A DNA stretch of 64,000 nucleotides from Bacteroidales bacterium (GCA_041737175.1 JBGSSF010000034.1:143606-207605); one strand, 5' to 3'. Positions 25,777-43,605 are shown, numbered from the stretch's first letter. Notes: generated from the sequence alone by a model not told the origin. A program made the numbers and translations.

Positions 25777-27339
25777 ATGAAACAAACGGGAATTCTGTTG
25801 ACTGTCATTATGCTGGCTGCCTGTTCTTCGGCGCCTAAAAGCAAGAGCAGTATGATCATTGATATCAATGCCGTAAAAACAGAAGCCGGGCTTGTTTCAG
25901 GAGTGCCCGGAGGGGATGGAACTGTCAGGATATTCAAGGGCATCCCCTTCGCAGCGCCTCCCGTGGGTGATTTGCGGTGGAAAGCACCGGCTCCGGTACC
26001 CCACTGGGAAGGTATACGCAATTGTGAAGTTTTTCCACCCAGCGCCATGCAGTCCAGGCCGGCACCATTTGCCATGTGGAGCAAAGAGTTCATGGCACCC
26101 GAGGAATTCCTGAGCGAGGACTGCCTTTACCTGAACCTCTGGACAGCTGCTAAAACAGCGGATGAGAAACGTCCTGTCATCCTTTGGATCCATGGTGGTG
26201 CTTTCACAAGCGGATCAGGTTCAGTGCCCCTGTACGACGGCGAGGAAATGGCCAAAAAGGGTGTTGTGTTTATCACCATCAATTACCGCCTGGGAATTTT
26301 TGGTTTTCTTGCTCACCCGGAATTAACTAGGGAATCGCCCAACAAGGTTTCCGGCAATTACGGAATCCTGGATCAGATTGCTGCCCTGCAATGGGTGAAA
26401 AACAATGTAGCCGCATTCGGAGGTGATCCCGAAAGGGTCACCATTGCCGGGCAATCAGCAGGATCATTCAGTGTCAATGCGCTTATGGTATCATCCCTGG
26501 CAAAAGGACTATTTCACAGGGCAATCGGACAGAGCGGTGCGATGTTCAGTTCGGAACTGGGACTCGGGCAAACGCTGGATGCTGCTGAGAAGTCTGGACT
26601 TAAATTCTTCGATGCATTGAAGATAAAAACCCTGGAAGAACTTCGGAAGATACCCGCTGAAGAGATGATGAAAGCAGGCGGGAGGGCCAGCTATAATATT
26701 GATGGTTATGTCCTTCCTGAAGTGATTCCCGCATTTGAAGCCGGACTTCAGAATGATGTTCCACTTATCAGTGGGTGGAATGCCGACGACGGAGTTTCAT
26801 TCGGTTCTATGCCTGGTGCAGCCAAATTTAAAGCTGATGCTGAAAAGAAATATGGTACGATGGCCCCTGAATTTTTCAGATTTTTCCCTGCCAATTCGGA
26901 TGAGGAAGCCGGGAAATCACAGAAAATATTGAACGTTCTGACTTTTGGCTGGTTGAACTATAAATGGGCCTCTATGCAAACCAAAACGGGGAAAAACAAG
27001 GCATATTTATATTATTTTACACATGTGCCTCCCGGTGAACCCAATTACGGGGCCTTTCATTCAGCCGAATTCGGCTATGCCCTCAAGACGCTGAAATACT
27101 GGAACAAGCCTTTTGTGTCCTGGGATCACCAGCTGGCAGAAATCATGTCGTCTTATTGGGTGAATTTCGCTGCAACAGGCAATCCCAATGGTGACGGGCT
27201 ACCGGAATGGCCGGTTTTCCAGACGGAAGATATCAAAGTAATGCAATTTGGAGAGAAGGCGGAAGCCATTGATCTGCCCATGGAAGACCAGTTGAAATTT
27301 CTGGATCGTTACCAGGGAACAACAATCACCGGAAAATAA
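25777..27339 (+). CDS. Type-B carboxylesterase/lipase family protein (lipoprotein)
   Basis: 520 aa with lipobox LAAC. Motifs are GIPFAAPPVGDLRW, ILWIHGGAF and the nucleophile elbow GQSAGS. Confidence 0.9.
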   Translation: MKQTGILLTVIMLAACSSAPKSKSSMIIDINAVKTEAGLVSGVPGGDGTVRIFKGIPFAAPPVGDLRWKAPAPVPHWEGIRNCEVFPPSAMQSRPAPFAMWSKEFMAPEEFLSEDCLYLNLWTAAKTADEKRPVILWIHGGAFTSGSGSVPLYDGEEMAKKGVVFITINYRLGIFGFLAHPELTRESPNKVSGNYGILDQIAALQWVKNNVAAFGGDPERVTIAGQSAGSFSVNALMVSSLAKGLFHRAIGQSGAMFSSELGLGQTLDAAEKSGLKFFDALKIKTLEELRKIPAEEMMKAGGRASYNIDGYVLPEVIPAFEAGLQNDVPLISGWNADDGVSFGSMPGAAKFKADAEKKYGTMAPEFFRFFPANSDEEAGKSQKILNVLTFGWLNYKWASMQTKTGKNKAYLYYFTHVPPGEPNYGAFHSAEFGYALKTLKYWNKPFVSWDHQLAEIMSSYWVNFAATGNPNGDGLPEWPVFQTEDIKVMQFGEKAEAIDLPMEDQLKFLDRYQGTTITGK

Positions 27340-27363: not shown

Positions 27364-28725
27364 CTACTCGGAGTCTTCCTTTTCCCTGCGGGCCTCCAGT
27401 TCTGTTTTTATCAGATCGGTGGTTTTTGCATCAATATTGTAAAAATACATGAATATGGCACAGGACATGTACAGAACACCAGGAATAACTGAAACCAGCA
27501 ATTTGATACCGGTAATCGAGGTTTCTGTCTGCACGGCATTGGCCACATAATTGAACATTGAAAGTATTACACCGACCAATGCGGCCCCAATTCCCCATCC
27601 TGCTTTTTGAGCAAATACGGCTGCCGAGAAATACAGTCCAGTTGCCCTGCGCCCGGTTTTCCATTCACCGTAATCAGCTGAATCGGCTATCATTGTCCAT
27701 AATAACGGAACTGCCGGCGCATACGCCATTTTAGCCAAAATATTAAACACATATATTGTAACAATATTCTGTGCTGTAGGAATATAAATGGCTATAAAGA
27801 ATATTCCTGAAATAATTGAACTGGCTATAAAAACATTCCTGTTGCCGAATTTTTTGGCCAAAGGTTTTGAGAATGGCAGGGCAACAATCAAAGCCACTGT
27901 TCCGATTACATTAAATAACTGCACATTTTCTTCATTACCAATATAGTATTTAAAGTAATAAACCACAGCCGCATTTTGAATCGCAAACATTACAAAAGAT
28001 ACTATGCCGACAATGGCTAAAATAATCCAGGCCCTGTTGGTAAAGAGATTTTTTAAATCGGCACCAAGAGAATTAACCTGTGATTTCGGGGGATGCACTT
28101 TCTCCTTTGTGGCTTTGAAAGTTATAAAGAAGAATACCAGACTCAGGCCGGCAAATAATACCACCGTATATTGGAAACCCTGAGCTTTGTCGCCACCTCC
28201 AAAGAATTTTGCCAAAGTAAGAGCGAGCCCGGTAACAATAAATTGTCCGGCAAAACCAGCAATAAACCTATATGTGTTTAACCCGGCCCGTTCGTATGAG
28301 TCGTTGGTCATTACTGCGCCTAATGCGGAATAGGGCAAGTTTACCGAGGCATATGCGGTCATTAACAAAATATAGGTTGCTGCGGCATATATGATCTTTC
28401 CTGCTTCACCAAAATTTGGTGTTGTGAAAGTCAAAATAGCCAAAACTGCATAGGGTACTGCTCCAAATAAGATATATGGCCTGAATTTCCCCCACTTTGT
28501 ATTGGTACGGTCGGATACGATACCAATAACAGGATCGATAGCCATATCCCAGAACCGGGCTATGAGCATAATTGTCCCGGCTGCAATTGCTGAAATTCCA
28601 TAAACATCGGTATAAAAAAACATGAGCCAGAAACCCACCATATCCCAAACAAAATGAGATGCGGTGTCTCCCAAACCATATCCTAATTTTTCTTTGAATG
28701 TCAATGACGAATTAATACTGTTCAT
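27364..28725 (-). CDS. GPH-family glycoside/pentoside/hexuronide:cation symporter (MFS)
   Basis: 453 aa and polytopic. The N-terminal LGYGLGDTASHFVWD and DPVIGIVSDRTNTKWGKFRPY are MelB/XynP-type signatures. Confidence 0.85.
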   Translation of the reverse strand: MNSINSSLTFKEKLGYGLGDTASHFVWDMVGFWLMFFYTDVYGISAIAAGTIMLIARFWDMAIDPVIGIVSDRTNTKWGKFRPYILFGAVPYAVLAILTFTTPNFGEAGKIIYAAATYILLMTAYASVNLPYSALGAVMTNDSYERAGLNTYRFIAGFAGQFIVTGLALTLAKFFGGGDKAQGFQYTVVLFAGLSLVFFFITFKATKEKVHPPKSQVNSLGADLKNLFTNRAWIILAIVGIVSFVMFAIQNAAVVYYFKYYIGNEENVQLFNVIGTVALIVALPFSKPLAKKFGNRNVFIASSIISGIFFIAIYIPTAQNIVTIYVFNILAKMAYAPAVPLLWTMIADSADYGEWKTGRRATGLYFSAAVFAQKAGWGIGAALVGVILSMFNYVANAVQTETSITGIKLLVSVIPGVLYMSCAIFMYFYNIDAKTTDLIKTELEARREKEDSE

Positions 28726-28936: not shown

Positions 28937-30514
28937 ATGAAGAAGCAAAATGTTTTTATAATTCTGATTTCATTAATCGTAGCTCTCGGAGGATTTCTCC
29001 TGGGTTTTGACAGTGCAGTTATTTCCGGGGCGGTCCCTTTTTACAGGAATGTGTTTGGATTAGAAAGTGGTTCTTTATTGCTGGGTCTCTCAGTTTCTGC
29101 CATCATCTTTGGCGCTATGGGCGGAAATTTTATCGGGGGAATTCTGGCTGATATTTATGGCCGAAAGTTGGTGCTTATTATGACTGCCGCTCTCTTTACA
29201 TTTTGTGCCCTGGCTACTTCTTTAACCAGTAATCTTGCTTTTTTTATCATTGCCAGAATAATAGGAGGCTTGGGGGTTGGCATGTCAATCCTGGTCGCCC
29301 CGATGTACATTGCTGAAATTGCACCACGCGAAAAAAGGGGAACTTTGGTATCAATAAATCAGTTAAATATTGTATTGGGTATTTCGGTTGCCTATTTCTC
29401 CAATTATTTTATTTTACAGAAAGTTACCGATCCAAATCTGAACTGGAGATGGATGTTGGGAATCGGTGCTATACCTGCAGTACTCTATTTCCTGTTGTTG
29501 TATTTTATTCCACAGAGTCCCCGCTGGCTGGCATTGAAAAACAGGGATGAAGAGGCAAAGAGGACTTTGGTCAGTATTGGAGGTGAGGAATATGCAACAC
29601 AGGTATTCAAAGAAATAAAAGAAAATATCGGGAAATCTGAAAAACATTCCGGCATCAGCTTTCGCGAAGTGTTTACGAAGAAAATGACCCTAATATTGAT
29701 TATTGGGCTTGGTATTGCATTCTTTCAACAAATTACAGGGATAAATGCTATTTTTTATTACGCACCTATGATCTTCGGGATGGCTGGTGGTGGTCAGGAT
29801 GCGGCATTTGCCCAGGCCATAATATTAGGATTGACAAATGTAGTATTCACGGTTGTTGCCATGTTTCTGATTGACAGGTTGGGCAGAAAGCCCCTTTTGA
29901 TTATTGGGTCAATCGGGATTATGATATCCCTTTCGATCGCTGGATTTGCATTTAAATCAGCTAAGTATAGCATTTCAGATCAAGGACTTGTGAAGATTAT
30001 GCAGGAAGCTGCTAAAAACAAGGAAAGTGAACCGGCAGATCTTACAGTTTTGGAAAGTGGATTGAGAAATCTTACAAACACATCTTTCGATAAAGAATTG
30101 ACTTTTTTTCAAGATGTCAAAAAAGAAATTGGCGCCAAGAATTATAACAATTTTAAATCGGTTATCCTGGAAAACTCTATATCAATGAATGCTATTCTTG
30201 TATTAATTGGATTGATTTTATATGTTGCCTCATTTGCTATTTCTCTTGGACCAGTGATGTGGACTTTGCTTTCGGAGATATTTCCCAACAAGATGAGGGG
30301 AGTTATGATCTCAATAGTCGGTACATGGAACTCTGTAGTTAGTTTCTCCGTTGCTACGGTTTTTCCTAAAGAACTTGAGGTTATCGGTTCAGGTTATACT
30401 TTTCTGATTTATGCTTTTTTAGGATTTCTAACCCTGTTATTTGTTTTGAAATTTGTGCCTGAAACAAAGGGTAAATCATTGGAAGAACTCGAGACCATTT
30501 TGGTGAGACAATAG
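28937..30514 (+). CDS. Sugar-porter-family MFS transporter (XylE/GLUT type) with an inserted hydrophilic loop
   Basis: 525 aa. Motifs are GFDSAVISGA, GRK, PQSPRWL and PETKGKSLEELE. About 75 extra hydrophilic residues lie between predicted TM9 and TM10. Confidence 0.85.
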   Translation: MKKQNVFIILISLIVALGGFLLGFDSAVISGAVPFYRNVFGLESGSLLLGLSVSAIIFGAMGGNFIGGILADIYGRKLVLIMTAALFTFCALATSLTSNLAFFIIARIIGGLGVGMSILVAPMYIAEIAPREKRGTLVSINQLNIVLGISVAYFSNYFILQKVTDPNLNWRWMLGIGAIPAVLYFLLLYFIPQSPRWLALKNRDEEAKRTLVSIGGEEYATQVFKEIKENIGKSEKHSGISFREVFTKKMTLILIIGLGIAFFQQITGINAIFYYAPMIFGMAGGGQDAAFAQAIILGLTNVVFTVVAMFLIDRLGRKPLLIIGSIGIMISLSIAGFAFKSAKYSISDQGLVKIMQEAAKNKESEPADLTVLESGLRNLTNTSFDKELTFFQDVKKEIGAKNYNNFKSVILENSISMNAILVLIGLILYVASFAISLGPVMWTLLSEIFPNKMRGVMISIVGTWNSVVSFSVATVFPKELEVIGSGYTFLIYAFLGFLTLLFVLKFVPETKGKSLEELETILVRQ

Positions 30515-30532: not shown

Positions 30533-31441
30533 ATGGCAATAGTTTTAAAGAACAGTATTCTTTGCCTGACTATTGAAGAACCAGGTCAGGTTTATAGTAA
30601 TTCACGGTTCGATTGGACTGGAAATATTTCTCAGGTTTTATTTGAGAACAAATTTATTTTCTGTTCGGTAGAGACAGCCAAAGGATTTGATCTTAAACGG
30701 CATGGTCAGGGTTTGTATAACGAATTTGGAATAACCAAACCGATAGGATACGAAGATTGTTTCGTGGGTGAGAAATTCCCTAAAATAGGCGTTGGACTGC
30801 TAACCAGAAAAAGTAACGATGCCTATCATTTTCTTGAAGCATACGAGATAGATCCTTTTGAAATTCAAATAGAAAAGGGAGAGGAATGGATAAAGTATAC
30901 GGTTTTTCCAAAAGATTGCAGAGGGTACAGTACAAAACTAATCAAGAAGATCAAACTCTCCGGTAATTCATTTACCCTTGATTATGAGTTGGAAAATACA
31001 GGAACAAGGAAAATACAAACGAATGAATACTGTCATAATTTTATGGCCGTTAACAGGTCGGATATTAATGAACACTATACGCTTAGGGTGCCATGCAAAA
31101 TAATTAAACCGTCATTTATGTTCGAAGCATTAAACCCTGAGAATGCCGTTGTGCTGAATGCAAACTCTGTAAATTTTAAATTCTCACCTGAAAAAGATTT
31201 TTTCTTTAGCCCTTTGACTGAATTTCAATCGGAAAATGGGGAATGGGAAATTACCCATGACGGCATGGGTATCGGAATGAAAGAAAGTACCGATTTCGTG
31301 CCTGAAATGATGAATGTATGGGGATGCAAACATGTACTCAGTCCGGAATTGTTCATTGGCATCGATCTGGATCCCGGACATAAACTAAAATGGCGGAGAA
31401 CCTACAAGTTCTATTATCTATTGCCGGATAGGCAACTGTGA
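30533..31441 (+). CDS. Hypothetical cytoplasmic protein (possibly mutarotase-like beta-sandwich)
   Basis: 302 aa with no signal peptide. It is tightly linked to the flanking genes (18-nt and 27-nt gaps). I recognise no diagnostic motif with confidence. Confidence 0.4.
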   Translation: MAIVLKNSILCLTIEEPGQVYSNSRFDWTGNISQVLFENKFIFCSVETAKGFDLKRHGQGLYNEFGITKPIGYEDCFVGEKFPKIGVGLLTRKSNDAYHFLEAYEIDPFEIQIEKGEEWIKYTVFPKDCRGYSTKLIKKIKLSGNSFTLDYELENTGTRKIQTNEYCHNFMAVNRSDINEHYTLRVPCKIIKPSFMFEALNPENAVVLNANSVNFKFSPEKDFFFSPLTEFQSENGEWEITHDGMGIGMKESTDFVPEMMNVWGCKHVLSPELFIGIDLDPGHKLKWRRTYKFYYLLPDRQL

Positions 31442-31468
31442 AATAATTAACCAATAATACGGAACCTG

Positions 31469-34400
31469 ATGGCTGAAAATAAATTATTGATCGGTAAGAA
31501 TGTATTCCAAACATGGGACAAAGAAGTCAAAGGTAAATTTGTGACAATTGATGGGGAAGATTTCTATGAAATCAGGAATTTTGACTCGATGTTGCCTTTT
31601 TTTATGAGTCTTGCAAGCGATTCTGACCACTGGATGTTTATTTCCAGCACCGGTGGTTTGTCAGCAGGAAGGATCAACCCCGAAAGCGCACTTTTCCCGT
31701 ATTATACAGATGATAAACTTCAGGAATCAGCAGAGACAACCGGGAGCAAATCAATTTTCAGGGTATTGTCAGAAGATAAAGAATATTTATGGGAGCCTTT
31801 TTCTGAGAGGTATGACGGTGTGTACAAAACCGAAAGGAACCTGTATAAAAATACTTGCGGCAATAAGCTCATTTTCGAAGAAAACAACCTCGATTTGGGA
31901 TTGTCCTTTCGGTATGGCTGGATGAACTCTGATCATTTCGGTTGGATCAGGAAAAGTATCCTGGTGAACAAATCGGTGACATCAGTCAGGGTGGAACTAA
32001 TGGATGGCCTGCAAAACCTGTTGCCATATGGAGTTGAGAGGTTTATGCAAAATCAGTTTTCCACCTTGCTCGACGGTTATAAAAAATCCGAGCTTGTGAA
32101 GGAATATTCGCTCGGATTGTTCCGGCTCGAATCTATTCCTGTTGATAAAGCCGAACCAAGCGAAGCACTAAAGGTTACAACTGTTTGGACTTGCGGCCTC
32201 GAAAAAAATATTTTTCTGTTAAGTTCAAGACAACTGGGACAGTTCAGAAAGGGAAAAAAAGTTGTTGAAGAGCAGGAATCAAAAGGAGTGAAAGGGGCAT
32301 TCTTTGCAAACGCCAAAATTAAACTTAATGCCGGCGAAAGCAAGGTATGGTATTTTGCTGCCGAGGTCAACCAGGATTCGGTGAAAGTGAATAACCTGAT
32401 TGATTTTTTGTCCAGGACCAAGGATAAAATGGATGCGTTAGAAAAGAATATTCAGGAAGGCACCCTTAACCTGAAAGTTATTGTTGCCGATGCAGATGGT
32501 ATTCAGAATTCATCCGACAAACTTGTGGTTTCAAGACACTTTTCGAATGTTTTGTTCAATGTCATGCGGGGGGGCATATTCAGCGAGGGTTATTCAATTG
32601 ATAAAAGTGATTTCCTCAAGCATGTCAAACACTTTAATAAACAAGTGCTGGAAGGGCACCGAAAACTCTTCGATCAGTTACCTGACACCCTCAAATATGA
32701 AGAGCTCGATAAAATAATAACCAAAGAGGGTGATGAAGATCTTCATCGTCTGTTTCTTGAATATCTGCCGCTTACCTTCAGCCGAAGGCATGGCGATCCA
32801 AGCCGCCCGTGGAACCTTTTTTCAATAAACATTAAAGATGTAAGCGGCAATAAGCTGCTATATTACCAGGGTAATTGGCGCGATATTTTCCAGAATTGGG
32901 AGGCATTGGCATTGTCTTATCCCGGTTATATAAGCGGTATGATCGCCAAGTTCGTGAATGCTTCATCGGCCGATGGATACAATCCGTATCGTGTAACCCG
33001 CGATGGAATAGACTGGGAAGTGCCTGAACCAGGTAATCCGTTCTCAAATATCGGCTATTGGGGCGATCATCAGATAATTTATCTGCTAAAATTGCTGGAG
33101 GTATCGGAGAAATATTTTCCGGGACATCTTAATTCATGGCTGGTCAAGGATATGTTTGCATATGCCAATATTCCTTACCGGATTAAATCCTATCAGGAGA
33201 TTGTTGATAACCCGCATGATTCTATTGACTTTGATTTTGATGCACATCATAAAATAGATGAAGATGTGGCCCGGATAGGAGCCGATGGCAAATTACTTCT
33301 TGATAAATCGGGTTTGGTATTTAAGGTTAATCTTACCGAAAAAATTCTGGCCCCGCTGTTATCCAAGCTTAGCAATTTTATTCCCGAGGCGGGCATTTGG
33401 ATGAATACCTTGCGTCCCGAATGGAACGATGCCAACAATGCACTGGTCGGGTATGGAGTATCCATGGTTACACTCTATTATATGAGGCGGTTCATTCATT
33501 TTATTGCCGGGTTGTTGTCGGCATTTTCTCATACAAGCCTTGAGATTACAGAGGAAATGGCAGACTTTCTTTCGGCAATTGATGATGCCCTGAAAGACCA
33601 TGAATCATTGCTCAACGAGGGATTCAATGACACGCAGCGTAAGCTGTTGGCAGATCGACTTGGCAATGCAGGAAGTGAATTCAGAGCTAAAGCATACAAG
33701 GGATTCTCCGGTAAAAAGGCATCTGTAAAGAAGCAGTACCTCATTAAATTTCTCAAAACAGCACAAGCTTTTATAGATCAGAGTATTGCTGCAAATAAAA
33801 GAACCGATAAACTCTACAATGCTTATAATCTATTGACTATCGGCGACAACGGCTTTTCAATCAGGCATTTGTATGAGATGCTTGAAGGACAGGTTTCAGT
33901 GCTGAGTTCCGGCAAACTTTCACCCGAAGAGTCGCTGGAAGTGCTCGATACCTTGAGAAATAGCAAGTTGTACCGTGCGGATCAGGAAAGCTATATTCTG
34001 TATCCGGACAAGAGATTGCCATGGTTTCTTGAAAAGAATATAGTACCCCCTGAAGATGTTAAGAGAATTCCACTGTTGTCGAAATTGATTGAAATGGGCG
34101 ATACAAGTATAATTGCCAGGGATACCAGGGGCCAGTACCATTTTAATGGTACATTCAATAATGCAGGTTTTCTGAAAAAAGCCTTGCAGAAGCTGACTGA
34201 TAGTGCAGTTGTAAAAGTTATGCCGGCGGAGATGAAACAGGTAATGGCGGTATATGAGAAAATATTTGATCATCAATCTTTTACTGGTAGGTCAGGTACT
34301 TTCTACAAGTATGAAGGGCTTGGTTCGATATACTGGCATATGGTTTCAAAGCTATTGCTCGCGGTTGGTGAAAACATTGAACTAGCCAGAAAAGGGGGTG

Positions 34401-34894
34401 CCACCGAAGATATCCTGCGTAAGCTGGCGGATCATTATGCAGAGATTAAAGAAGGCATTGGAGTTCATAAAACGCCTGATAAATATGGGGCATTCCCGAT
34501 TGATCCATACTCCCATACCCCCCGGATGGCAGGGGTGCAGCAGCCGGGTATGACCGGTCAGGTGAAAGAAGATGTTATCAGCCGGTTCTTTGAGCTTGGC
34601 CTGGTTGTAAATAACGGACAAATATCATTTAATCCCGTCGTTCTGAAAAAGAATGAATATATTCTCCCGGGAACAAAAGATTCCCATGGCCATTCTGTGC
34701 CGCACCTTTATTTTACTTACTGCAAAGTTCAGGTAATTTACCTGCTTGACGGTAAAGATGGAATAGACCTGGTTTTTAACAATGGGAATTCTTTAAATAT
34801 CCAGGGATCTGCTATTGACAAAGTAAACAGCCATTCTATTTTTAATCGGGAAGGAAAAATAAGTAAAATACATGTTCATCTGACCCTTGAATAA
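31469..34894 (+). CDS. Large uncharacterised protein, putative GH94-superfamily-like glycan phosphorylase/hydrolase
   Basis: 1141 aa, cytoplasmic, with no signal peptide. WRDIFQNW (32876-32899) and RPEWNDANNAL (EWND at 33419-33430) resemble my recollection of the RDxxQD and DWND motifs of GH94-type (alpha/alpha)6 phosphorylases. The size is similar to GH149/GH161 beta-1,3-glucan phosphorylases. The family assignment is unverified. Confidence 0.35.
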   Translation: MAENKLLIGKNVFQTWDKEVKGKFVTIDGEDFYEIRNFDSMLPFFMSLASDSDHWMFISSTGGLSAGRINPESALFPYYTDDKLQESAETTGSKSIFRVLSEDKEYLWEPFSERYDGVYKTERNLYKNTCGNKLIFEENNLDLGLSFRYGWMNSDHFGWIRKSILVNKSVTSVRVELMDGLQNLLPYGVERFMQNQFSTLLDGYKKSELVKEYSLGLFRLESIPVDKAEPSEALKVTTVWTCGLEKNIFLLSSRQLGQFRKGKKVVEEQESKGVKGAFFANAKIKLNAGESKVWYFAAEVNQDSVKVNNLIDFLSRTKDKMDALEKNIQEGTLNLKVIVADADGIQNSSDKLVVSRHFSNVLFNVMRGGIFSEGYSIDKSDFLKHVKHFNKQVLEGHRKLFDQLPDTLKYEELDKIITKEGDEDLHRLFLEYLPLTFSRRHGDPSRPWNLFSINIKDVSGNKLLYYQGNWRDIFQNWEALALSYPGYISGMIAKFVNASSADGYNPYRVTRDGIDWEVPEPGNPFSNIGYWGDHQIIYLLKLLEVSEKYFPGHLNSWLVKDMFAYANIPYRIKSYQEIVDNPHDSIDFDFDAHHKIDEDVARIGADGKLLLDKSGLVFKVNLTEKILAPLLSKLSNFIPEAGIWMNTLRPEWNDANNALVGYGVSMVTLYYMRRFIHFIAGLLSAFSHTSLEITEEMADFLSAIDDALKDHESLLNEGFNDTQRKLLADRLGNAGSEFRAKAYKGFSGKKASVKKQYLIKFLKTAQAFIDQSIAANKRTDKLYNAYNLLTIGDNGFSIRHLYEMLEGQVSVLSSGKLSPEESLEVLDTLRNSKLYRADQESYILYPDKRLPWFLEKNIVPPEDVKRIPLLSKLIEMGDTSIIARDTRGQYHFNGTFNNAGFLKKALQKLTDSAVVKVMPAEMKQVMAVYEKIFDHQSFTGRSGTFYKYEGLGSIYWHMVSKLLLAVGENIELARKGGATEDILRKLADHYAEIKEGIGVHKTPDKYGAFPIDPYSHTPRMAGVQQPGMTGQVKEDVISRFFELGLVVNNGQISFNPVVLKKNEYILPGTKDSHGHSVPHLYFTYCKVQVIYLLDGKDGIDLVFNNGNSLNIQGSAIDKVNSHSIFNREGKISKIHVHLTLE

Positions 34895-34901
34895 TAAGTT
34901 A

Positions 34902-35255
34902 ATGATGGATACCAGGGATATAACATATATCGTCAGGGGACGGATCTGGATAGAGGTTCACCGTAAAACCCTGTTGGGTGAGGGCAAGGTCCATTTGCTG
35001 AGGAAAACAGCTGAACACGGCTCCCTGCGAAAAGCAGCAAAAGAAATGAATCTTTCTTACAGAAAAGCCTGGTACAGCCTGTACCAGATGAATAATGCCG
35101 CCGGCATGCCGCTGATAGTTCTTAAACGGGGAGGCAGACAAGGCGGTATTGCCCAGATTACCCCTTATGGGAAAGAAATTCTTGGAAAATTTGAAAAAGC
35201 GGAAGAGGAATTCATTGCTTTTTTGGATGCGCAGACCAGGCGTCTGAATGTATAA
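34902..35255 (+). CDS. ModE-N-terminal-like winged-helix regulator (no Mop/TOBE domains)
   Basis: The track start is TTG 34887, so ATG 34902 is preferred. GSLRKAAKEMNLSYRKAWYSLYQMN ... GGRQGGIAQITPYGKEIL parallels E. coli ModE GSISQGAKDAGISYKSAWDAINEMN ... GGKGGGGAVLTRYGQRL. Confidence 0.7.
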   Translation: MMDTRDITYIVRGRIWIEVHRKTLLGEGKVHLLRKTAEHGSLRKAAKEMNLSYRKAWYSLYQMNNAAGMPLIVLKRGGRQGGIAQITPYGKEILGKFEKAEEEFIAFLDAQTRRLNV

Positions 35256-35367
35256 CTCTTCTGATGTAAACAAAGATTTTGTCGTCTTAGGCGGAATTTA
35301 TATCTTCACAAACGTTATTCCTTAATCGAATAACGAAGTATCCTTTACTACCATTTTGAAAATCAGA

Positions 35368-37347
35368 ATGAAAAGAGTTCCATTACTACTCCTATTTTTT
35401 ACCCTGTCTTTTAACTGCCTCGCACAGCAGGAAACAGATACGGCAGCATATCCGGTGAAATCGTTCCAGCTTGGAGAAGTCATCATAACCGGGACCATTG
35501 ACAGGGAAATGATAGGGACGAATGAGCTGCACAGATATAATGCCCACGATGTAAGTTCTTCACTTGGCATACTGCCTTCCATTACCCTAAGCAACCTGGG
35601 TCCTCGCAACGAAAGTGCCGTTTACCTGAGAGGTTTCGACATTCGCAGTATACCTGTGTTTGTTGATGGCATTCCTGTGTATGTGCCTTATGATGGTTAT
35701 ATGGATCTGGCCCGTTTTACCACCTACGACGTATCCAAAATAGATGTTTCCAAAGGATTTTCTTCCATGATGTACGGTGCCAATACCCTCGGAGGGGCCA
35801 TCAACCTGGTCGGCATGAAACCATCCTATCCATTGGAAATCAGCGCCAAAGCCGGTATCATGAGCGGCAATGGTTATGATGCCCGGCTCAACCTGGGCAG
35901 CAAAATGGGGAAGGCCTATATTCAATCGGGTTTCTCCATAATGAACAGGGAGTTTGTTCCCTTATCGGCGGATTTTGACACTTCGGCGCTTGAAAATAAC
36001 CGCAGTCGCGACAATTCTTACCGTAAAGACATTAAAGGAAGCCTAAAAATTGGTTATGCACCCAATCCTACTGATGAATACAGCATTAACTATATTATTT
36101 CCCACGGGAGCAAAGGAAACCCGGTTTATCTCGGGGATGACAACACGATCAGGGTCCGCTATTGGGATTGGCCTTACTGGGATAAACAAAGCGTTTATTT
36201 GATTTCTAAAACAGCCATCGGACAGAAATCCTATCTGAAAGCACGTTTGTTTTTCGACGAATTCAAGAATAAGCTCAGGAGTTATGATGATAATAGCTAC
36301 ACCACACAGCTAAAAGGATATTCCTTTAACAGCTACTTCAAGGATTATACACTGGGTGGCAATCTTGAATTCTCAAGAGATGCGGGCAAAAATAACACCC
36401 TCAGATTCTCGGCACACCTGAAAAACGACAACCACAGCGAGCACAATGAAGGTGAACCTGCCATACACATTGCCGACAATACTGTTTCAATCAGCTTTGA
36501 AAGTGTTTACAAACCGGTCAGTAGACTTACCTTAATACCTGGTGTGGGTTACAATGTCAGGTACAGCTTAAAAGCAGAGAATTATAATTCCGCTGATCAG
36601 ACCATAACTGAATTGCCCGGTAATTCAAATGATGCATTCAATGCGCAACTGGCTGCCTATTATCAGTTATCGAATGCTTTTTCAGCAAATTTCAATGTCG
36701 CCTATAAAAACCGTTTTGCTACCATGAAAGATCGGTATTCATACCGTCTTGGCGTAGCCATTCCGAATCCCGATCTAACATCAGAATCAGCACTTAACCT
36801 TGAACTGGCGGCCAACCTGATTGTGGCTGAAAAACTTAAACTGCGGCCTGAATTATTTTACAGCCGCCTCTACAACACCATTCAGCCGGTGGACAATGTG
36901 CAGGATGACCTGTCACAGATGCAGAATACCGGTTCATCGCGATTTGTTGGTGCTGATCTCAGTCTGATTTACCAGCCGTATAAGAGTTTCAGGCTCTATG
37001 CGGTTTATTCTTATATTCAACGTGATAACCTGAGCAATCCGGAACTTTTATTCACTGATGTTCCGGAAAACAAAGTATTTGTTTCTGCAGAATTCAGTTT
37101 TGCCGAAAAACTTTCCGTCCAATTATCTGGTGAATATAATTCCGAACGCATCAATGCCAGTGATGGTTCAAGAATATCACCTGCCTTTGCCATTGCCAAT
37201 GCGGAAATTTCGTACCGCTTTGCCGGATTTATGGATGCAGAATTCGGTGTAAACAATCTACTCGATAATAACTATACCCTGGATGAAGGATACCCCGAAA
37301 TGGGCCGGAATCTTTATGCTTCATTGCATTTCAATTTCCATAAATGA
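35368..37347 (+). CDS. TonB-dependent outer-membrane receptor (small, BtuB/siderophore-receptor size)
   Basis: ATG 35368 gives MKRVPLLLLFFTLSFNCLAQQ. Plug motifs are VIITG, SVYLRGF, PVFVDGIPV and KGFSSMMYGANTLGGAINLV. The C-terminus is a beta-barrel ending in an aromatic-rich terminal strand (SLHFNFHK). Confidence 0.9.
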   Translation: MKRVPLLLLFFTLSFNCLAQQETDTAAYPVKSFQLGEVIITGTIDREMIGTNELHRYNAHDVSSSLGILPSITLSNLGPRNESAVYLRGFDIRSIPVFVDGIPVYVPYDGYMDLARFTTYDVSKIDVSKGFSSMMYGANTLGGAINLVGMKPSYPLEISAKAGIMSGNGYDARLNLGSKMGKAYIQSGFSIMNREFVPLSADFDTSALENNRSRDNSYRKDIKGSLKIGYAPNPTDEYSINYIISHGSKGNPVYLGDDNTIRVRYWDWPYWDKQSVYLISKTAIGQKSYLKARLFFDEFKNKLRSYDDNSYTTQLKGYSFNSYFKDYTLGGNLEFSRDAGKNNTLRFSAHLKNDNHSEHNEGEPAIHIADNTVSISFESVYKPVSRLTLIPGVGYNVRYSLKAENYNSADQTITELPGNSNDAFNAQLAAYYQLSNAFSANFNVAYKNRFATMKDRYSYRLGVAIPNPDLTSESALNLELAANLIVAEKLKLRPELFYSRLYNTIQPVDNVQDDLSQMQNTGSSRFVGADLSLIYQPYKSFRLYAVYSYIQRDNLSNPELLFTDVPENKVFVSAEFSFAEKLSVQLSGEYNSERINASDGSRISPAFAIANAEISYRFAGFMDAEFGVNNLLDNNYTLDEGYPEMGRNLYASLHFNFHK

Positions 37348-39101
37348 ACGACAGGTATTTACTCAATGATGTCTGGTTGAAGGCATCTATTTTGGGCGCC
37401 AACTGGGCAGCATCCGAAATCATACTGGGAAGTTTTCTGCACAATCTGAATATTCCTTTCAAAGGAAATATACTCACTGCAATCGGGCTTATCCTGATGA
37501 TCTCGGTGGCCTATAAATGGAAGGACAGGGGGCTGTTCTGGCGCAGCGGACTGATCTGCGCCCTGATGAAAACCATGTCGCCAAGCGCTGTTCTTTTGGG
37601 ACCCATGGTGGCCATTATTATGGAAGCTTTATTGCTTGATATTTCCGTCAGGCTGGTGGGAAGAAACCTGGCCGGCTTTTTTTTGGGTTCCGCCCTGGCT
37701 ATGTCATGGATTCTGACACAGAAAATCATCAACTATATCATCTACTATGGAAACAATATCGTTGAAATATATGCAAACGTTCTGAAATATGCCGAACAAC
37801 AATTAAATATACTATTCGATATTTTTTGGCTTCCGGTGATGATTTTACTAGCCGTATATATTCTTTTCGGCCTGCTTGCTGCAGTGGTTGGAGCAAAGAT
37901 GGCGAGGAGCATAGCCGGCAATCAGGATATCAGAGGACAGGTACCCCAGAAACGGCCTGTTGAGTTGCAGAACAGCGAGTATGCTGATTTTCCTTATTCA
38001 ATAAATTGGCTCATACTGAGCTTCGCAGGACTTGTTACGGCTTTCATTTTGATTAACAAAAGTCCGATGTACATATGGATACCTGTGTCGGTGCTTTTGG
38101 TCACTTTATGGGTCTCGCGTTATAAACGGGCAATGCGTCAGCTTTCACGTCCCAGGTTCTGGATTTTCTTTGTGGTGATTACTGTTTTATCTGCCGTGTT
38201 AATAACGTCACTTAATGGCGGTCAGCGTCATTGGACAGACGGACTGATCATTGGTCTGCAGATGAATTTCAGAGCAGCTGTTGTTATCTTTGGCTTTTCG
38301 GCATTGGGAACAGAATTGTACAATCCCGTAATCAGAAATTTTTTAGCGAAAACAGTATTCAAACAACTTCCGGCTGCCCTTGAACTGGCATTTGAATCGC
38401 TCCCGTTTGTGGTTGCCAACCTGCCGGATGCAAAGACCTTCATTAAGAAACCTGCGGATGTAATAGCACTTTTAATAAGTTATACGGAGGATCGTTTCAA
38501 CACACTGAAAAAACAGCAGCAGGCATCGGTTTTTATCATTACTGGTGATGTTTCTGAAGGGAAAACAGGTTTTTTGGTTGAGCTTCTCCATAGATTACGG
38601 AACAAAGACTTATTGATCGGAGGCTTTTATGCGCCCCGCATTATGCTGGATGGAAAAACGCTGGGTTATGACCTGGTCTTTGTTGAGACTGAAAATAAAT
38701 TGCGTTTTTTGAGTATAAAGCAAAATGGAGAGCCCGGTGGAATTGGAAAATATGAAATCGATACTGAGACCCTGGAACAGGGCAAAAGGATACTTTCCAC
38801 TGAAAACTGCAGGAAGAAAGATGTCGTAATCATCGATGAGATCGGCAGGCTCGAACTGCAGGGGTGTGGTTGGAGCAGTTGTCTTGAAAACCTGCTTGCC
38901 AAACCGGATTTATGCTTGATAATCACCGTAAGGAAGGACATTCTGAACCTTGTTCTTGAAAAATATGAAATCAGAAATCCCGCCATTTATAGTGTTTACG
39001 AAAACAACCTGCACAAGGCAGAAACATCGATTGTGGACAGGATATTATGTCACAAAGAGGAAAAGCAAACTGCGAACTTTAGGCTTGGTAATATAACATA
39101 A
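37344..39101 (+). CDS. Polytopic membrane protein fused to a C-terminal THEP1/DUF2478-like P-loop NTPase
   Basis: 585 aa, with an ATGA overlap with the TBDR stop. About 390 aa contain many hydrophobic helices. These are followed by Walker A GDVSEGKTG (38544-38570), a G-F/Y segment (IGGFYAPR) and Walker B VVIIDEIGRLE. Confidence 0.6.
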   Translation: MNDRYLLNDVWLKASILGANWAASEIILGSFLHNLNIPFKGNILTAIGLILMISVAYKWKDRGLFWRSGLICALMKTMSPSAVLLGPMVAIIMEALLLDISVRLVGRNLAGFFLGSALAMSWILTQKIINYIIYYGNNIVEIYANVLKYAEQQLNILFDIFWLPVMILLAVYILFGLLAAVVGAKMARSIAGNQDIRGQVPQKRPVELQNSEYADFPYSINWLILSFAGLVTAFILINKSPMYIWIPVSVLLVTLWVSRYKRAMRQLSRPRFWIFFVVITVLSAVLITSLNGGQRHWTDGLIIGLQMNFRAAVVIFGFSALGTELYNPVIRNFLAKTVFKQLPAALELAFESLPFVVANLPDAKTFIKKPADVIALLISYTEDRFNTLKKQQQASVFIITGDVSEGKTGFLVELLHRLRNKDLLIGGFYAPRIMLDGKTLGYDLVFVETENKLRFLSIKQNGEPGGIGKYEIDTETLEQGKRILSTENCRKKDVVIIDEIGRLELQGCGWSSCLENLLAKPDLCLIITVRKDILNLVLEKYEIRNPAIYSVYENNLHKAETSIVDRILCHKEEKQTANFRLGNIT

Positions 39102-41327: not shown

Positions 41328-42533
41328 CTACCTGATCTTCGAACCCTTCACAGCAAAGAAAGTAATGTAAGCGTAATAAATAAACAGGCAGCAGATAGCG
41401 ACAACCAGACCGATGCTTTTTTGAATGCCACCCATCATGATGGGCAATATGGCTGCTCCGATGACAGAGGTGGCAATAACACCTGATCCCACCTTGGAAT
41501 GCGGGCCGAGATCCTCAAGCGCCAGGTTGTATATGCAGGGCCACATGATTGAATGCATCAAGCCGGTTCCGAGGAAAAGCACCAGCGAAATTGTAGCCAT
41601 ATTCATGTTGCCCAGAACAAGTGATAAGAGCAGCATTACTGCACCTGCTATGGCACAGAAACTCAGGATCTGGCTCGCTGAGTATTTACGAAGGATAAAA
41701 ATCCCTAAAATACGGCCGATCATCAATCCCAACCAATAATAAGCCAACAGCTTGGTTCGCATTTCGCCGTCAAAAGTGAAGCCCAGTTTGGCCGAATAAT
41801 CAGCAAAGAAACTGGGAATTCCGATCTCAACGCCCATGTATACAAAGATTGCCAGTGAACCCAGCCACATATGGGGATACTTGTAGGCGCTTGACTTAAA
41901 CTTTTTCGCTACTCCTTCGGCAGATTCATCACCCTTAATCTCAGGCAGGTGAAGGAAAAACATGATGACCACAATGACCAGTGTCGCAATGCCGATACCG
42001 GCAAAAGGACCTTGCACGGTTTTCGGATCTGTGGCACCCGGTGTATTGGATGATACAATCAGCATGGAAACAAATATGGGAGCAATCACCGTTGCCAGTG
42101 AATTAAGCGCGTTGGTAAGTGTCAGCCGGCTGGCGGCAGTTTCCGGTTTACCCAGGGCGTTTACATAAGGATTGGCAGCCACCTGCAGCAGAACAACACC
42201 GATGGCAAATACCGATACAGCACTCAGGAATCCATAGTATCCTGCGGCAACACCGGGGATGCATAGGAAGAAACCGGCACTGACAAGGGCAAGACCAGCC
42301 AGCACACCATTTTTATAACCTATTCTGTTCAGCAAGTACCCAACCGGGATGGATAAAATGTAAGCGCCGTAGAAAAAAGTATTGGGCAATTGTTTTTCGA
42401 CTTCATTGAGATTGAATGCATCTTTCAGGTAATCGATCAACGAGTTGTTCATGGTAGTGATGAAGCCAAAAAGGAAAAACAGGGAGGCCATCACGATCAA
42501 CGGGAACAGGAATTTTGAGTTTTCTTTTTGCAT
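41328..42533 (-). CDS. MFS glucose/galactose (FucP/GluP-type) transporter
   Basis: 401 aa and polytopic. The N-terminal LFFLFGFITTMNNSLI pattern is typical of FucP/GluP transporters. It is the last gene of the galK-galM cluster. Confidence 0.8.
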   Translation of the reverse strand: MQKENSKFLFPLIVMASLFFLFGFITTMNNSLIDYLKDAFNLNEVEKQLPNTFFYGAYILSIPVGYLLNRIGYKNGVLAGLALVSAGFFLCIPGVAAGYYGFLSAVSVFAIGVVLLQVAANPYVNALGKPETAASRLTLTNALNSLATVIAPIFVSMLIVSSNTPGATDPKTVQGPFAGIGIATLVIVVIMFFLHLPEIKGDESAEGVAKKFKSSAYKYPHMWLGSLAIFVYMGVEIGIPSFFADYSAKLGFTFDGEMRTKLLAYYWLGLMIGRILGIFILRKYSASQILSFCAIAGAVMLLLSLVLGNMNMATISLVLFLGTGLMHSIMWPCIYNLALEDLGPHSKVGSGVIATSVIGAAILPIMMGGIQKSIGLVVAICCLFIYYAYITFFAVKGSKIR

Positions 42534-42552
42534 GGTAAATGATGTTTAAAGT

Positions 42553-43605
42553 TTATTTCGTTGAAAATTTATGCACACAACTATGCCTGTACTCCTCTCC
42601 GGGATTAAGTATGGTTGACGGAAAATGAGGCTGGTTAATGCCATCTGGGAAGTGCTGTGTCTCCAGACAAAATGCCCATCTCCTGCCGTATTTCTTGCCG
42701 CCCTTGCCTTTCTCGCCATCTATCCAGTTGGCCGTGTAAAGCTGAACACCAGGCTGGGTTGTATATACCTCCATCACCCTCCCTGATACCGGATCATGGG
42801 CGACAGCAGCAAGTCCCAGAGTGCCGGTGCGATGCCGCAAAACCCAGTTCTGATCGTACCCGGCTCCAAATTTCAGCTGTTCATCCTCCCTGTCAATATC
42901 CCTGCCTATTTTTTTTACCACTGTAAAATCCAGTGGAGTTCCTATCACGCTCCTGATTTCACCAGTAGGAACCGAGGTTTCATCGGTAGGTGTGAAAAAG
43001 GAACCATTGATCATCAATTCCTGATCGTAAATGCTGCCGGACCCTTCACCTGCCAGGTTAAAATAGGAATGACTGGCCAGAGCGATCACGGTAGATTTAT
43101 CCGTAGTCGCCAGGTAATCCAGCCTGAGTTCGTTATTGCCAGTAAGTGTATAGGTGACCGAAACCTTGAGATTTCCGGGATATCCTTCCTCCATATCCCG
43201 GGATACATACTCCAGTTGCACCTGGTCTGATGAAACCTTCATTACATCCCACACCACTTTACTGAAGCCGGTAATCCCACCGTGCAAATGATTGGGCCCG
43301 TTATTTGTAGCCAGGGTATACTGTTTGCCTGCAAGTGTGAACTTCCCTTTTGCTATGCGATTGGCGCATCTTCCACATACAGCACCCATATAAGGTCCAT
43401 TGCCTTGGGTGTATTCCTGGATGGTGTCATATCCCTGTACAATGTCGGCAAGATTTCCGTTACGGTCGGGAACATATATGCTGACTATGATAGCGCCGTA
43501 GTTCGTGATCTGGGCTATGAGACCGTTTTTGTTTTTTAATGTATAAAGTCCGGTTGGTTTGCCATTATGCATGCCTTTAAAGGATGCTTCCTGAATTATA
43601 TTCAT
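42553..43605 (-). CDS. galM: Aldose 1-epimerase (galactose mutarotase)
   Basis: 350 aa. Motifs are NNGPNHLHGG, SHSYFNL and FCLETQHFPD. Confidence 0.9.
   Translation of the reverse strand: MNIIQEASFKGMHNGKPTGLYTLKNKNGLIAQITNYGAIIVSIYVPDRNGNLADIVQGYDTIQEYTQGNGPYMGAVCGRCANRIAKGKFTLAGKQYTLATNNGPNHLHGGITGFSKVVWDVMKVSSDQVQLEYVSRDMEEGYPGNLKVSVTYTLTGNNELRLDYLATTDKSTVIALASHSYFNLAGEGSGSIYDQELMINGSFFTPTDETSVPTGEIRSVIGTPLDFTVVKKIGRDIDREDEQLKFGAGYDQNWVLRHRTGTLGLAAVAHDPVSGRVMEVYTTQPGVQLYTANWIDGEKGKGGKKYGRRWAFCLETQHFPDGINQPHFPSTILNPGEEYRHSCVHKFSTK

Follow-up and report, generated by a model that had tools for sequence, protein, structure and literature searches.

Gene content and organization of the locus

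The DNA analyzed here (the window) is a 64,000-nucleotide stretch from an uncultured Bacteroidales bacterium recovered from a hot-spring metagenome. It contains a unit of three genes on the plus strand. The first encodes a 525-residue MFS transporter of the sugar-porter family (28937..30514, +; Sugar_tr, 6e-113; TIGR00879, 364 bits, above the cutoff). It is followed by a gene for a 302-residue protein of an unnamed family, assigned a galactose-mutarotase fold from an AF2 model, Foldseek, and hhalign (30533..31441, +), and by a gene for a 1141-residue protein predicted to be a GH149 β-1,3-(oligo)glucan phosphorylase from its matches to NF058639 and PDB 6HQ6 (31469..34894, +). The intergenic gaps measure 18 nt (porter to 302-residue protein) and 27 nt (302-residue protein to GH149), and neither contains a terminator-like site, which supports reading the unit as an operon. 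These three reading frames, their spacing, and two sequence motifs in the largest protein had been described in an earlier note, and all proved to be as stated there. The order of the three genes is kept in eight related genomes (L001-L008).

A GPH-family (MFS_2) glycoside:cation symporter (27364..28725, −; PF13347, 7e-114; TIGR00792, 399 bits, above the cutoff) is transcribed divergently, and its position is kept in L001-L006, L008, L014, and L015. The conserved cluster also includes a GH3 exo-glycosidase with N- and C-terminal Glyco_hydro_3 domains and an Fn3-like domain (23322..25769, +), whose ortholog in L002 is 92% identical and has the same relative position. A GH2 enzyme (18180..20717, −) and a GH30 homolog (2948..4363, +) are found in the window as well; all three glycoside hydrolases mentioned in the earlier note were thus located. 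A carboxylesterase and a DUF5916 protein are further members of the conserved cluster. Endo-glucanases of GH16 or GH17 are absent from the locus, and its vicinity lacks a SusC/D pair. A canonical GalM is encoded at 42553..43605.

The adjacent sugar porter is of the monosaccharide type, with XylE and GlcP as its best NCBIfam matches, and the GPH symporter is more likely to be the oligosaccharide importer of the locus. Because the adjacent transporter is of this type, the enzyme may naturally act on a short β-glucoside instead of laminarin.

The 1141-residue protein belongs to GH149

The 1141-residue protein scores 1643.8 bits against the NCBIfam GH149 equivalog NF058639 (cutoff, 1150 bits; model length, 1134), with residues 18-1138 aligned to model positions 3-1133. 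It also matches the structures of Pro_7066 (PDB 6HQ6/6HQ8; E = 0, 1214 bits, residues 15-1138 on chain positions 34-1169), to which it is approximately 51% identical over its full length. Pro_7066 has been shown biochemically to be a β-1,3-glucan phosphorylase that acts on substrates with a DP of 2 and above (PMC5827456). Dom1 (residues 370-428) and Dom2 (residues 852-938), two GH149-specific insertions in the catalytic domain whose limits were taken from PMC6771811, appear to be covered by the 6HQ6 alignment with a gap of only two residues. Judged by its sequence, the protein is an ordinary GH149 β-1,3-glucan phosphorylase, neither an orphan nor the first of a new family. It is predicted to be a cytoplasmic, inverting phosphorylase of clan GH-Q, which also holds GH94, in a β-glucan context.

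The resemblance to Pro_7066 extends to equal length and domain order, the absence of a signal peptide, a Bacteroidota origin, and clustering with GH3 and MFS transporter genes. Clustering of GH149 genes with those for GH3, GH30, and MFS transporters has been reported (PMC5827456). The present cluster differs in lacking GH16, GH17, and SusC/D genes and in its hot-spring community source. The surface oligosaccharide site of Pro_7066 is also not kept, with Y841 replaced by Glu, Y993 by Ala, E838 by Ala, and E990 by Asp.

Two other families were considered and rejected. Similarity to the GH161 structures 9QQK and 9H8V is not full length and consists of weak, partial matches in three short stretches (approximately 1e-15). 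GH94 is likewise excluded, as the Pfam profile search of the protein returned no model at E ≤ 1, GH94 included, and the motifs are PEWND and RDIFQN rather than ADWND and RDxxQD. The earlier note had compared the size of the protein to GH149 and GH161. The comparison with GH149 was the right lead. Its proposal of a phosphorylase of the GH94 clan in a β-glucan setting correctly named the kind of enzyme. The descriptions orphan and new or divergent family do not survive, as the protein passes the GH149 equivalog cutoff and matches a solved structure along its full length. A confident match to a characterized family was the outcome that the note itself had named as refuting its claim of novelty, although it had specified an unrelated family and GH149 is related to GH94.

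Active-site motifs and the role of Glu651

Each active-site residue named for Pro_7066 in PMC6771811 has an identical counterpart here (R471, D472, W652, N653, D654, and H957). The segment YYQGNWRDIFQNWEAL (residues 465-480) contains the RD motif, R471-D472 (32879..32884, +), which corresponds to R470/D471 of Pro_7066 and is predicted to recognize the sugar 1-phosphate in the −1 subsite. The segment NTLRPEWNDANNALVGYG spans residues 646-663. E651-W652-N653-D654 (33419..33430, +) includes the WND catalytic loop, in which D654 is the predicted catalytic acid; in Pro_7066, the catalytic Asp is D653, the last residue of WND (PMC6771811). The phosphate-site histidine is H957, within YWHM (34337..34339, +), which corresponds to H959 of Pro_7066. 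In a set of 14 diverse GH149 sequences, all 14 have the same RD motif, WND loop, and phosphate-site His.

GH149 and GH94 differ at the position preceding WND. PEWND is present in all 27 GH149 sequences compared, whereas all 11 GH94-type sequences contain ADWND. The sugar-recognition motif is RDIFQN in GH149 and RDxxQD in the GH94 laminaribiose phosphorylases of the fetched loci. By this comparison, E651 is an invariant, non-catalytic signature of GH149, and GH94 has Asp at the same position. The earlier note had given both GH94 motifs correctly, as the laminaribiose phosphorylases confirm, but its replacement of the catalytic Asp by Glu was an error of register: the catalytic Asp is D654, which is present. 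The alignment to GH149 that it proposed as a check, made here with Pro_7066, finds the RD motif, D654, and the phosphate-site His conserved. A divergent or new phosphorylase or hydrolase family with a Glu in place of the catalytic Asp might be read from the lack of a Pfam match and from PEWND in place of the GH94 ADWND. With D654 present, E651 invariant throughout GH149, and full-length matches to both the equivalog and a solved structure, this reading has virtually no probability left.

The clan relationship is evident in features common to GH149 and the GH94 laminaribiose phosphorylase (LBP; PsLBP, 6GGY) and cellobiose phosphorylases, namely inverting logic, the Asp of WND as acid, and the RD motif. 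However, GH94 enzymes have approximately 800-915 residues and lack Dom1 and Dom2, and GH94 LBP uses only a disaccharide substrate.

The 302-residue partner has a mutarotase fold

Sequence searches of the 302-residue protein against Pfam, NCBIfam, and PDB yielded no match, and a PDB profile search was likewise empty. The aldose 1-epimerase model PF01263 was matched by none of 30 family members, even at E ≤ 10. The family is large, comprising 469 homolog clusters in one search and 1,889 clusters at 50% identity in another. The AF2 model has a pLDDT of 95.4 and a pTM of 0.92. All top Foldseek matches are mutarotases or aldose-1-epimerases (E 9e-12 to 1e-7, TM approximately 0.6), led by 3K25, 3NRE, 3DCD, 4BZE, 3MWX, 3Q1N, 1LUR, and 1SNZ (9e-12 to 3e-8). 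A profile-profile alignment with hhalign links the family to a mutarotase with a probability of 87% (P = 5e-7). On the strength of the model, we place this soluble, cytoplasmic protein as a divergent member in the superfamily with the galactose-mutarotase fold, which agrees with the epimerase-like accessory suggested in the earlier note. As that note stated for the phosphorylase, neither it nor this protein has an N-terminus that resembles a signal peptide on inspection; homologs start alike, and residues 3-14 of the partner form β strands in the model.

The protein shares the β-sandwich with the aldose-1-epimerase superfamily (GalM, YphB [3NRE], Slr1438 [3K25], YeaD/Ymr099c, YihR, and maltose epimerase) and is similar in size to short-type mutarotases (approximately 290-310 residues). 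It also has an N-x-G...H-x-(Y/F) block with an invariant His at the catalytic-His position and a C-terminal PGE...Y-x-F motif. Identity to the superfamily is only approximately 11%. In 90 family sequences, with identities as low as 27%, some 20 polar positions show little or no variation. Column counts define an invariant core of R25, G88, N155, G157, H168, N169, and R289, with D27, E47, E64, K84, E165, E272, and W287 near-invariant. Within these, R25, D27, E47, E64, E165, N169, E272, W287, and R289 are the family's own set, unlike that of mutarotases.

The catalytic residues of GalM are kept in part. H168 (31034..31036, +), invariant in 90 of 90 sequences, aligns with the catalytic His175 of E. 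coli GalM and with the His of the YphB GWHP motif, a correspondence of moderate alignment confidence. GalM His104 and Asp243 are not kept in the hhalign alignment, where a gap faces the LHGG block and the non-conserved N235 lies opposite Asp243. GalM Glu309 is placed opposite G264, eight residues before E272. From its conservation (89/90) and an inferred strand order, E272 (31346..31348, +) is the candidate for the mutarotase catalytic Glu; E251 is conserved in 79 of 90.

Genomic neighbors of the partner family

Among 78 loci centered on the partner, 25 have a β-1,3-glucoside phosphorylase as the immediate neighbor (16 GH149 and 9 GH94 LBP, the latter identified by 6GGY at E = 0). Such a phosphorylase occurs within 10 kb in 37 of the 78 and a β-glucan CAZyme in 43, while 35 contain no glycan genes within this distance. 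An MFS gene is next door in 22. The loci with β-glucan context span Bacteroidota, Ignavibacteriota, KSB1, Lentisphaerota, and Bacillota. In Bacillota, a GH94 LBP takes the place next to the partner that GH149 has here, and in Paenibacillus these two genes stand by themselves as a pair, surrounded by housekeeping genes. Conversely, the partner is present in just 2 of 80 GH149-centered loci and is thus an optional accessory.

Proposed pathway and alternative readings

We interpret the locus as a cytoplasmic salvage module for β-1,3-gluco-oligosaccharides, in which a GH149 phosphorylase is joined by a mutarotase-fold partner that is possibly an anomerase (probability approximately 0.85). Laminari-oligosaccharides would enter through the neighboring MFS transporters. 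The phosphorylase would then use phosphate to remove the non-reducing-end glucose from imported chains with a DP of 2 and above, releasing α-D-glucose-1-phosphate and shortening the chain until glucose is left. D654 in the WND loop would serve as general acid, R471 and D472 would hold the −1 glucose, and H957 would lie at the phosphate site. Homology to a characterized and crystallized enzyme establishes this predicted phosphorylase step.

The GH149 homolog might instead have drifted to another substrate, such as a different β-glucoside or a glucoside bearing decorations or acyl groups, in place of linear β-1,3-gluco-oligosaccharides. Identity to the nearest characterized enzyme is only approximately 51%, the tyrosines that provide stacking in the surface site of Pro_7066 are replaced (Y841 by E840, Y993 by A991), the cluster has a carboxylesterase and DUF5916 but no GH16 or GH17, and a hot spring is not a marine laminarin setting. 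Yet the score is well above the equivalog cutoff, and no variation is seen among the residues of the −1 subsite, catalysis, or the phosphate site. Moreover, EgP1 and Pro_7066 have the same activity at only 45% identity (PMC5827456), and the surface site is reported to be poorly conserved in bacterial GH149 enzymes less identical to Pro_7066 (PMC6771811). Such a drift is improbable, at about one chance in ten.

For the partner, our leading hypothesis, to which we give somewhat less than even odds, is a pathway-dedicated reducing-end anomerase for imported β-glucan sugars. It would equilibrate the α and β reducing ends of imported glucose or laminari-oligosaccharides and thereby prevent slow spontaneous mutarotation from limiting later steps that prefer one anomer, either at the +1 subsite of the phosphorylase or at a kinase. 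Such a role would explain why the partner is helpful but dispensable. Counting against it are the canonical GalM of the same genome, the lack of similarity to PF01263, the loss of counterparts to GalM His104 and Asp243, the ambiguous register of the catalytic Glu, the rarity of the partner in GH149-centered loci, and the 35 partner loci with no glycan genes. A YeaD/Ymr099c-type hexose-6-phosphate 1-epimerase, acting downstream of the phosphorylase on glucose-6-phosphate derived from Glc-1-P, is unlikely. The yeast hexose-6-phosphate mutarotase (2CIQ/2CIR), of similar length, is among the Foldseek matches (E 7e-8 to 1e-7), four basic residues with little or no variation (R25, K84, K138, and R289) could bind phosphate, and the family pairs with enzymes that yield sugar phosphate. 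However, similarity to YeaD is not detectable in sequence, and transporters and extracellular-type GH16/GH30 enzymes often adjoin the partner, which fits free imported sugars equally well or better.

The protein may also be no anomerase, having either a non-catalytic carbohydrate-binding or regulatory role or a remodeled active site for another reaction on β-glucan sugars; we give this perhaps one chance in four. Only His175 of the canonical catalytic residues is clearly kept, 35 of the 78 partner loci are without glycan context, and the Foldseek list includes the same fold in non-catalytic domains (YidC P1, NDH subunits, and the N-terminal domains of cellobiose/chitobiose phosphorylases). Against a binding module, the approximately 20 invariant or near-invariant polar residues, including His, Glu, Asp, and Arg, form the pattern of an enzyme active site, and the best Foldseek matches are free-standing enzymes rather than domains.

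Tentatively, at about one chance in three, the 302-residue protein founds an undescribed and widespread enzyme family with a mutarotase fold and a remodeled active site, functionally coupled to inverting β-1,3-glucoside phosphorylases of two GH families, GH149 and GH94 LBP. If so, the protein and its phosphorylase would be, for example, a β-glucan counterpart of the maltose epimerase/maltose phosphorylase pair, and an anomerase for the reducing ends of laminari-oligosaccharides or glucose could feed an anomer-selective +1 subsite. There are precedents for the pathway-dedicated anomerase of our leading hypothesis: maltose epimerase is an aldose-1-epimerase-family enzyme with a disaccharide substrate (PMC3875567), and the sulfoglycolysis operon has its own mutarotase for sulfoquinovose, YihR (PMC5902678). 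The 302-residue protein resembles GalM, YihR, and maltose epimerase in being encoded in a sugar-catabolic operon. The E. coli annotation of YihR agrees with its sulfoquinovose mutarotase role.

Identity of the 1141-aa Protein

The 1141-aa product of 31469..34894 (+) is, by its sequence, a new member of GH149, a known and structurally characterised family that a curated model already captures. This model, the NCBIfam equivalog NF058639 ('1,3-beta-D-glucan phosphorylase, GH149 family'), gives the protein 1643.8 bits, where the curated cutoff is 1150, and its positions 3-1133 of 1134 align with residues 18-1138. A PDB sequence search returned the characterised bacterial GH149 enzyme Pro_7066, a beta-1,3-oligosaccharide phosphorylase (6HQ6/6HQ8; E=0, 1214 bits, query residues 15-1138), which is about 51% identical over 1135 columns, as counted from the printed alignments. 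PDB chains of GH161 and 'cellobiose phosphorylase' gave partial matches only, near 1e-15. The protein looked unassigned because a Pfam scan gave no match to it, GH94 domain included. This is a gap in the library and not evidence of novelty; the missing Pfam model makes GH149 genes look like orphans.

In Pro_7066, the WND motif consists of W651, N652, and the predicted catalytic residue D653. The RD motif (R470/D471) is implicated in sugar-1-phosphate recognition and H959 in the phosphate site (PMC6771811). A chain-to-paper offset of 19 was used for mapping and reproduces all residue letters cited in that study. Alignment to Pro_7066 gives W652-N653-D654, R471-D472, and H957 as the equivalents in the window protein. 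In an alignment of 14 diverse GH149 members, these residues do not vary, and neither does any position of the block R649-P-E-W-N-D-A-N-N-A-L-V-G661. The two motif peptides quoted in the earlier note lie at aa 465-480 and 646-663, and its GH94 motifs are correct, as the GH94 laminaribiose phosphorylases (LBPs) of the fetched loci read ADWND and RDxxQD. PEWND is found in 27 of 27 GH149 sequences. The Glu is the counterpart of the first Asp in the GH94 DWND motif, and the catalytic residue is the last Asp, which is present as D654. 'EWND' is thus a hallmark of GH149, with no catalytic substitution. The headline of the earlier note, an orphan enzyme of a possibly new family with Glu in place of the catalytic Asp, is not supported. 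The main claim itself carries little weight, since current NCBI models already give this further GH149 gene its right name.

Pro_7066 and a Euglena enzyme catalyse phosphorolysis of beta-1,3-gluco-oligosaccharides of DP 2 and above (PMC5827456). By homology, the window GH149 would attack beta-1,3-gluco-oligosaccharides at the non-reducing end, transferring the terminal glucose to phosphate with inversion and releasing alpha-Glc-1-P. It differs from Pro_7066 at a remote surface oligosaccharide-binding site, which corresponds to aa 837-840 and 988-992 of the window protein. Its stacking tyrosines are replaced (Y841 to E840 and Y993 to A991), and E838 and E990 are changed to A and D, respectively. 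Bacterial GH149 enzymes with lower identity to Pro_7066 conserve this site poorly (PMC6771811). If it targets long chains in Pro_7066, the window GH149 may prefer short oligosaccharides. A drift of the window enzyme to another substrate altogether is improbable; the surface site has changed and the active-site residues are kept.

Gene Neighborhood and the Three-Gene Unit

The genomes nearest to the window are uncultured Bacteroidales MAGs. The best of the homologous loci, L002, shares 92% identity in GH149, 89% in the sugar porter, and 76% in the 302-aa protein. The sole public run containing all sampled sequence words is a hot-springs metagenome. The conserved cluster has the order DUF5916 protein (20654..23098, +), GH3 (23322..25769), type-B carboxylesterase (25777..27339, +; 6e-104), divergent GPH-type MFS_2 symporter (27364..28725, -), sugar porter, 302-aa gene, and GH149. 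The window also holds a GH2 (18180..20717, -) and a GH30 homolog (2948..4363), so the glycoside hydrolases listed in the earlier note are all present. Bacteroidetes GH149 genes have been reported to cluster with GH3, GH30, GH16/17, and MFS transporters (PMC5827456). Neither GH16, GH17, nor a SusC/D pair was found near the window GH149 locus. The GPH symporter is of the kind reported for glycosides and oligosaccharides, and substrate may enter through it, the sugar porter, or both. The periplasmic GH3, with other enzymes encoded elsewhere, would trim the substrates. The carboxylesterase and the DUF5916 protein are kept in the GH3/GH149 cluster of L002 and L004-L006. This may point to a natural substrate that carries decorations such as acyl groups, as opposed to plain laminarin.

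The genes for the 525-aa sugar porter (28937..30514, +), the 302-aa partner (30533..31441, +), and GH149 appear in the six-frame ORF list as three same-strand ORFs, with the 18-nt and 27-nt gaps previously noted. This spacing, together with synteny in eight genomes, supports co-transcription of the three predicted genes. No terminator-like site lies within either gap according to a terminator scan whose output, like that of the promoter scan, was at chance level. Among public runs, the sequence was found in DNA runs only and in no RNA run. In Pfam the porter matches Sugar_tr/MFS_1. It belongs to the monosaccharide type; among equivalog-like NCBIfam models it scores best with XylE and GlcP, in each case below the cutoff. 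An insertion of ~70 aa (aa about 343-415), rich in charged residues, splits the Sugar_tr match into two stretches. It is kept in the 525-aa orthologs of L001-L008 and is unusual for XylE/GlcP-type porters.

Downstream, 34887..39101 (+) begins with a 122-aa ModE-N-terminal-like HTH ORF that has a TTG start and overlaps the GH149 stop by 8 nt. Next come genes for a TonB-dependent receptor (Plug domain) and for a 585-aa membrane protein whose C-terminal domain is NTPase_1. L002 carries these three ORFs after GH149 as well, and they are probably a separate uptake unit.

Predicted Fold and Conserved Residues of the Partner Family

Pfam and NCBIfam gave no match for the 302-aa partner, and against PDB sequences neither phmmer nor hmmsearch with a 30-sequence profile gave anything usable. 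Pfam scans of individual family members at E<=10 gave only scattered chance matches. A word-indexed search returned 469 homologs, nearly all named 'hypothetical protein'; a single UniRef entry is labelled 'Aldose 1-epimerase'. An exhaustive profile search recovered 1,889 clusters (50% identity) at E<=1e-3 and 740 at E<=1e-30. Among the homologs listed, almost all have a single domain and a length of about 290-300 aa. In 90 sequences, with identities as low as 27%, R25, G88, N155, G157, H168, N169, and R289 are invariant, and the near-invariant positions include D27, E47, E64, K84, E165, Y166, W238, W263, S270-P271-E272, and W287.

An AlphaFold2 model built on the alignment is all-beta, with a pLDDT of 95.4 and a pTM of 0.92. 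The top Foldseek matches in the PDB are free-standing mutarotases, namely Slr1438 (3K25; 9e-12), E. coli YphB (3NRE), a Lactobacillus mutarotase-related enzyme (3DCD), B. subtilis GalM (4BZE), human GALM, and yeast hexose-6-phosphate mutarotase, at TM about 0.6 and about 11% identity. Non-catalytic domains of the same fold rank lower. Comparison of the partner profile with the single E. coli GalM or YphB sequence by hhalign was not significant (probability below 1%). The informative comparison, run locally, set the 90-sequence partner profile against a 7-sequence epimerase profile (E. coli GalM, YphB, YeaD, and YihR plus Bacteroidales GalMs). Global alignment gave a probability of 87% (P=5e-7), and local alignment 65%. 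In the well-aligned middle block, partner N155-x-G157...H168-N-F falls on epimerase 'N-x-G...H-x-Y-F-N', and invariant H168 is therefore the counterpart of GalM His175. K84 aligns with the Arg of the epimerase NRI motif. Unlike in GalM, equivalents of His104 and Asp243 are not conserved in the partner family. The alignment sets G264 opposite GalM Glu309, and neither C-terminal sub-alignments nor alternative alignments settled the register. By strand order, E272 (89 of 90 sequences) is the favoured candidate for the Glu309 counterpart. E251 was rejected as the catalytic base, being conserved in only 79 of 90. The predicted structure and profile alignment place the family within the mutarotase fold superfamily, as a divergent member whose pocket is partly remodelled. 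It is not assigned to the aldose-1-epimerase family despite the shared fold.

Genomic Association of the Partner Family

Partner-centred loci were drawn from reference genomes as the best 80 of 567, a sample selected by similarity and thus biased; 78 had a called family ORF. The ORFs of the 80 loci were clustered and the recurrent clusters annotated. GH149 is the commonest neighbour cluster (28/78 loci), followed by MFS_2 (20), sugar porter (16), GH3 (14), GH16 (12), GH30 (11), and GH17 (5). A 915-aa protein in 10 loci is LBP (PsLBP 6GGY, E=0, 1406 bits). The gene directly beside the partner encodes a beta-1,3-glucoside phosphorylase in 25 of 78 loci (16 GH149 and 9 LBP), and 37 loci have such an enzyme within 10 kb. 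A beta-glucan CAZyme of some kind occurs in 43, and 35 have no glycan genes nearby. Adjacency to a phosphorylase spans Bacteroidales, KSB1, Ignavibacteriota, Lentisphaerota, and MAGs labelled beta-proteobacterial. It extends to Bacillota, where the phosphorylase is GH149 in Alkalibacterium and Natronobacillus and LBP in Paenibacillus and Chengkuizengella. The LBP-partner gene pair of Paenibacillus stands isolated among genes for glutamine synthetase, DAHP synthase, and an aminotransferase.

The reverse test used the best 80 GH149-centred metagenome loci by similarity, likewise a biased sample, about 50-59% identical to the window protein. A partner-family member lies within 6 kb of GH149 in 2/80, and in 1/46 of the loci with at least 1.5 kb on both flanks. 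The partner is clearly an optional accessory, repeatedly placed beside beta-1,3-glucoside phosphorylases, and not an obligate component. A role as an obligate GH149 subunit or chaperone was rejected on the 2/80 count.

Several other associations were seen in these loci. Proteins of cluster c8_422 (about 340-440 aa; e.g., L012:14409-15680) occur in 9 loci, in 5 of them immediately beside the 302-aa family. They have no Pfam match and show weak NCBIfam similarity to segments of the beta-galactosidases GalA and GalB, and may be another unannotated component of beta-glucan loci. In loci of Ignavibacteriota and Bacteroidota, the gene for the 302-aa homolog is preceded, 2-3 genes upstream, by one for a 1,100-aa DUF5107-TPR protein (cluster c33; L013, L020, L025, and L031). 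In the E. coli locus L082, YphB, the aldose 1-epimerase among the top structural matches, is clustered with the DUF5107 protein YphG, and the pairing of a mutarotase fold with DUF5107 could be a recurring one. L016:2926-9880 holds a tandem of a 302-aa homolog, GH149, and an 803-aa GH94-type phosphorylase (ADWND motif), a GH149-GH94 pairing analogous to published GH161-GH94 tandems.

Possible Role of the Partner

The partner may be an anomerase, a tentative reading with a probability of about 0.4. The predicted fold, the invariant His at the catalytic-His position, and a cytoplasmic location fit this role, as does the position of the gene between transporters and inverting phosphorylases. The dispensability of the partner is also consistent with it, since mutarotation occurs spontaneously as well. 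The anomeric centre is sensed at the +1 subsite of GH94-type enzymes; for GH149 and LBP, anomer selectivity is not documented in the literature examined. Maltose epimerase, which serves an alpha-maltose-specific maltose phosphorylase, offers a precedent. It is an aldose-1-epimerase-family protein with a disaccharide substrate (PMC3875567). YihR offers another, being a dedicated sulfoquinovose mutarotase within its catabolic operon (PMC5902678).

Two other roles have to be weighed against an anomerase. Yeast hexose-6-phosphate mutarotase is among the top Foldseek matches, and the partner might act as a sugar-phosphate mutarotase; this is improbable. A function other than that of an anomerase would agree with the remodelled pocket and less well with the invariant His, and is unlikely, though less so than action on sugar phosphates.

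The partner is a modestly interesting lead, from an unnamed, widespread mutarotase-fold family associated with two phosphorylase families. The family is a useful by-product of the analysis, as it is large and nameless, has polar core residues that do not vary and a mutarotase-fold model of high confidence, and recurs beside these phosphorylases in several phyla. It is unmentioned in the GH149, GH161, and LBP gene-cluster analyses within the literature searched, and nothing relevant pairing GH149, LBP, or laminarin loci with a mutarotase or epimerase was found in that collection. If the partner is an anomerase, an overlooked step would be added to cytoplasmic beta-glucan catabolism, and coupled phosphorylase reactions for making beta-1,3-glucans could be improved.

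Other mutarotase-superfamily proteins are encoded in the window. The block 41328..45051 (-) comprises an MFS transporter (41328..42533), a canonical galactose mutarotase (42553..43605; Aldose_epim 6e-91), and a galactokinase (43723..45051). It directly follows GH149 in L001, L003, L004, L005, and L014. Given a canonical GalM beside galactokinase, the organism has a standard GalM besides the 302-aa mutarotase-fold protein, and the partner was rejected as its galactose mutarotase (GalM adjoins galK at 42553..45051). A third superfamily protein, DUF4432 (12245..13252; 2e-97), belongs to a sugar-catabolic operon at 11030..17151 (-) that also encodes an FGGY kinase and fucose-isomerase-like, mannitol-dehydrogenase-like, and class II aldolase proteins. 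An AraC regulator (17247..18137) lies beside this operon.
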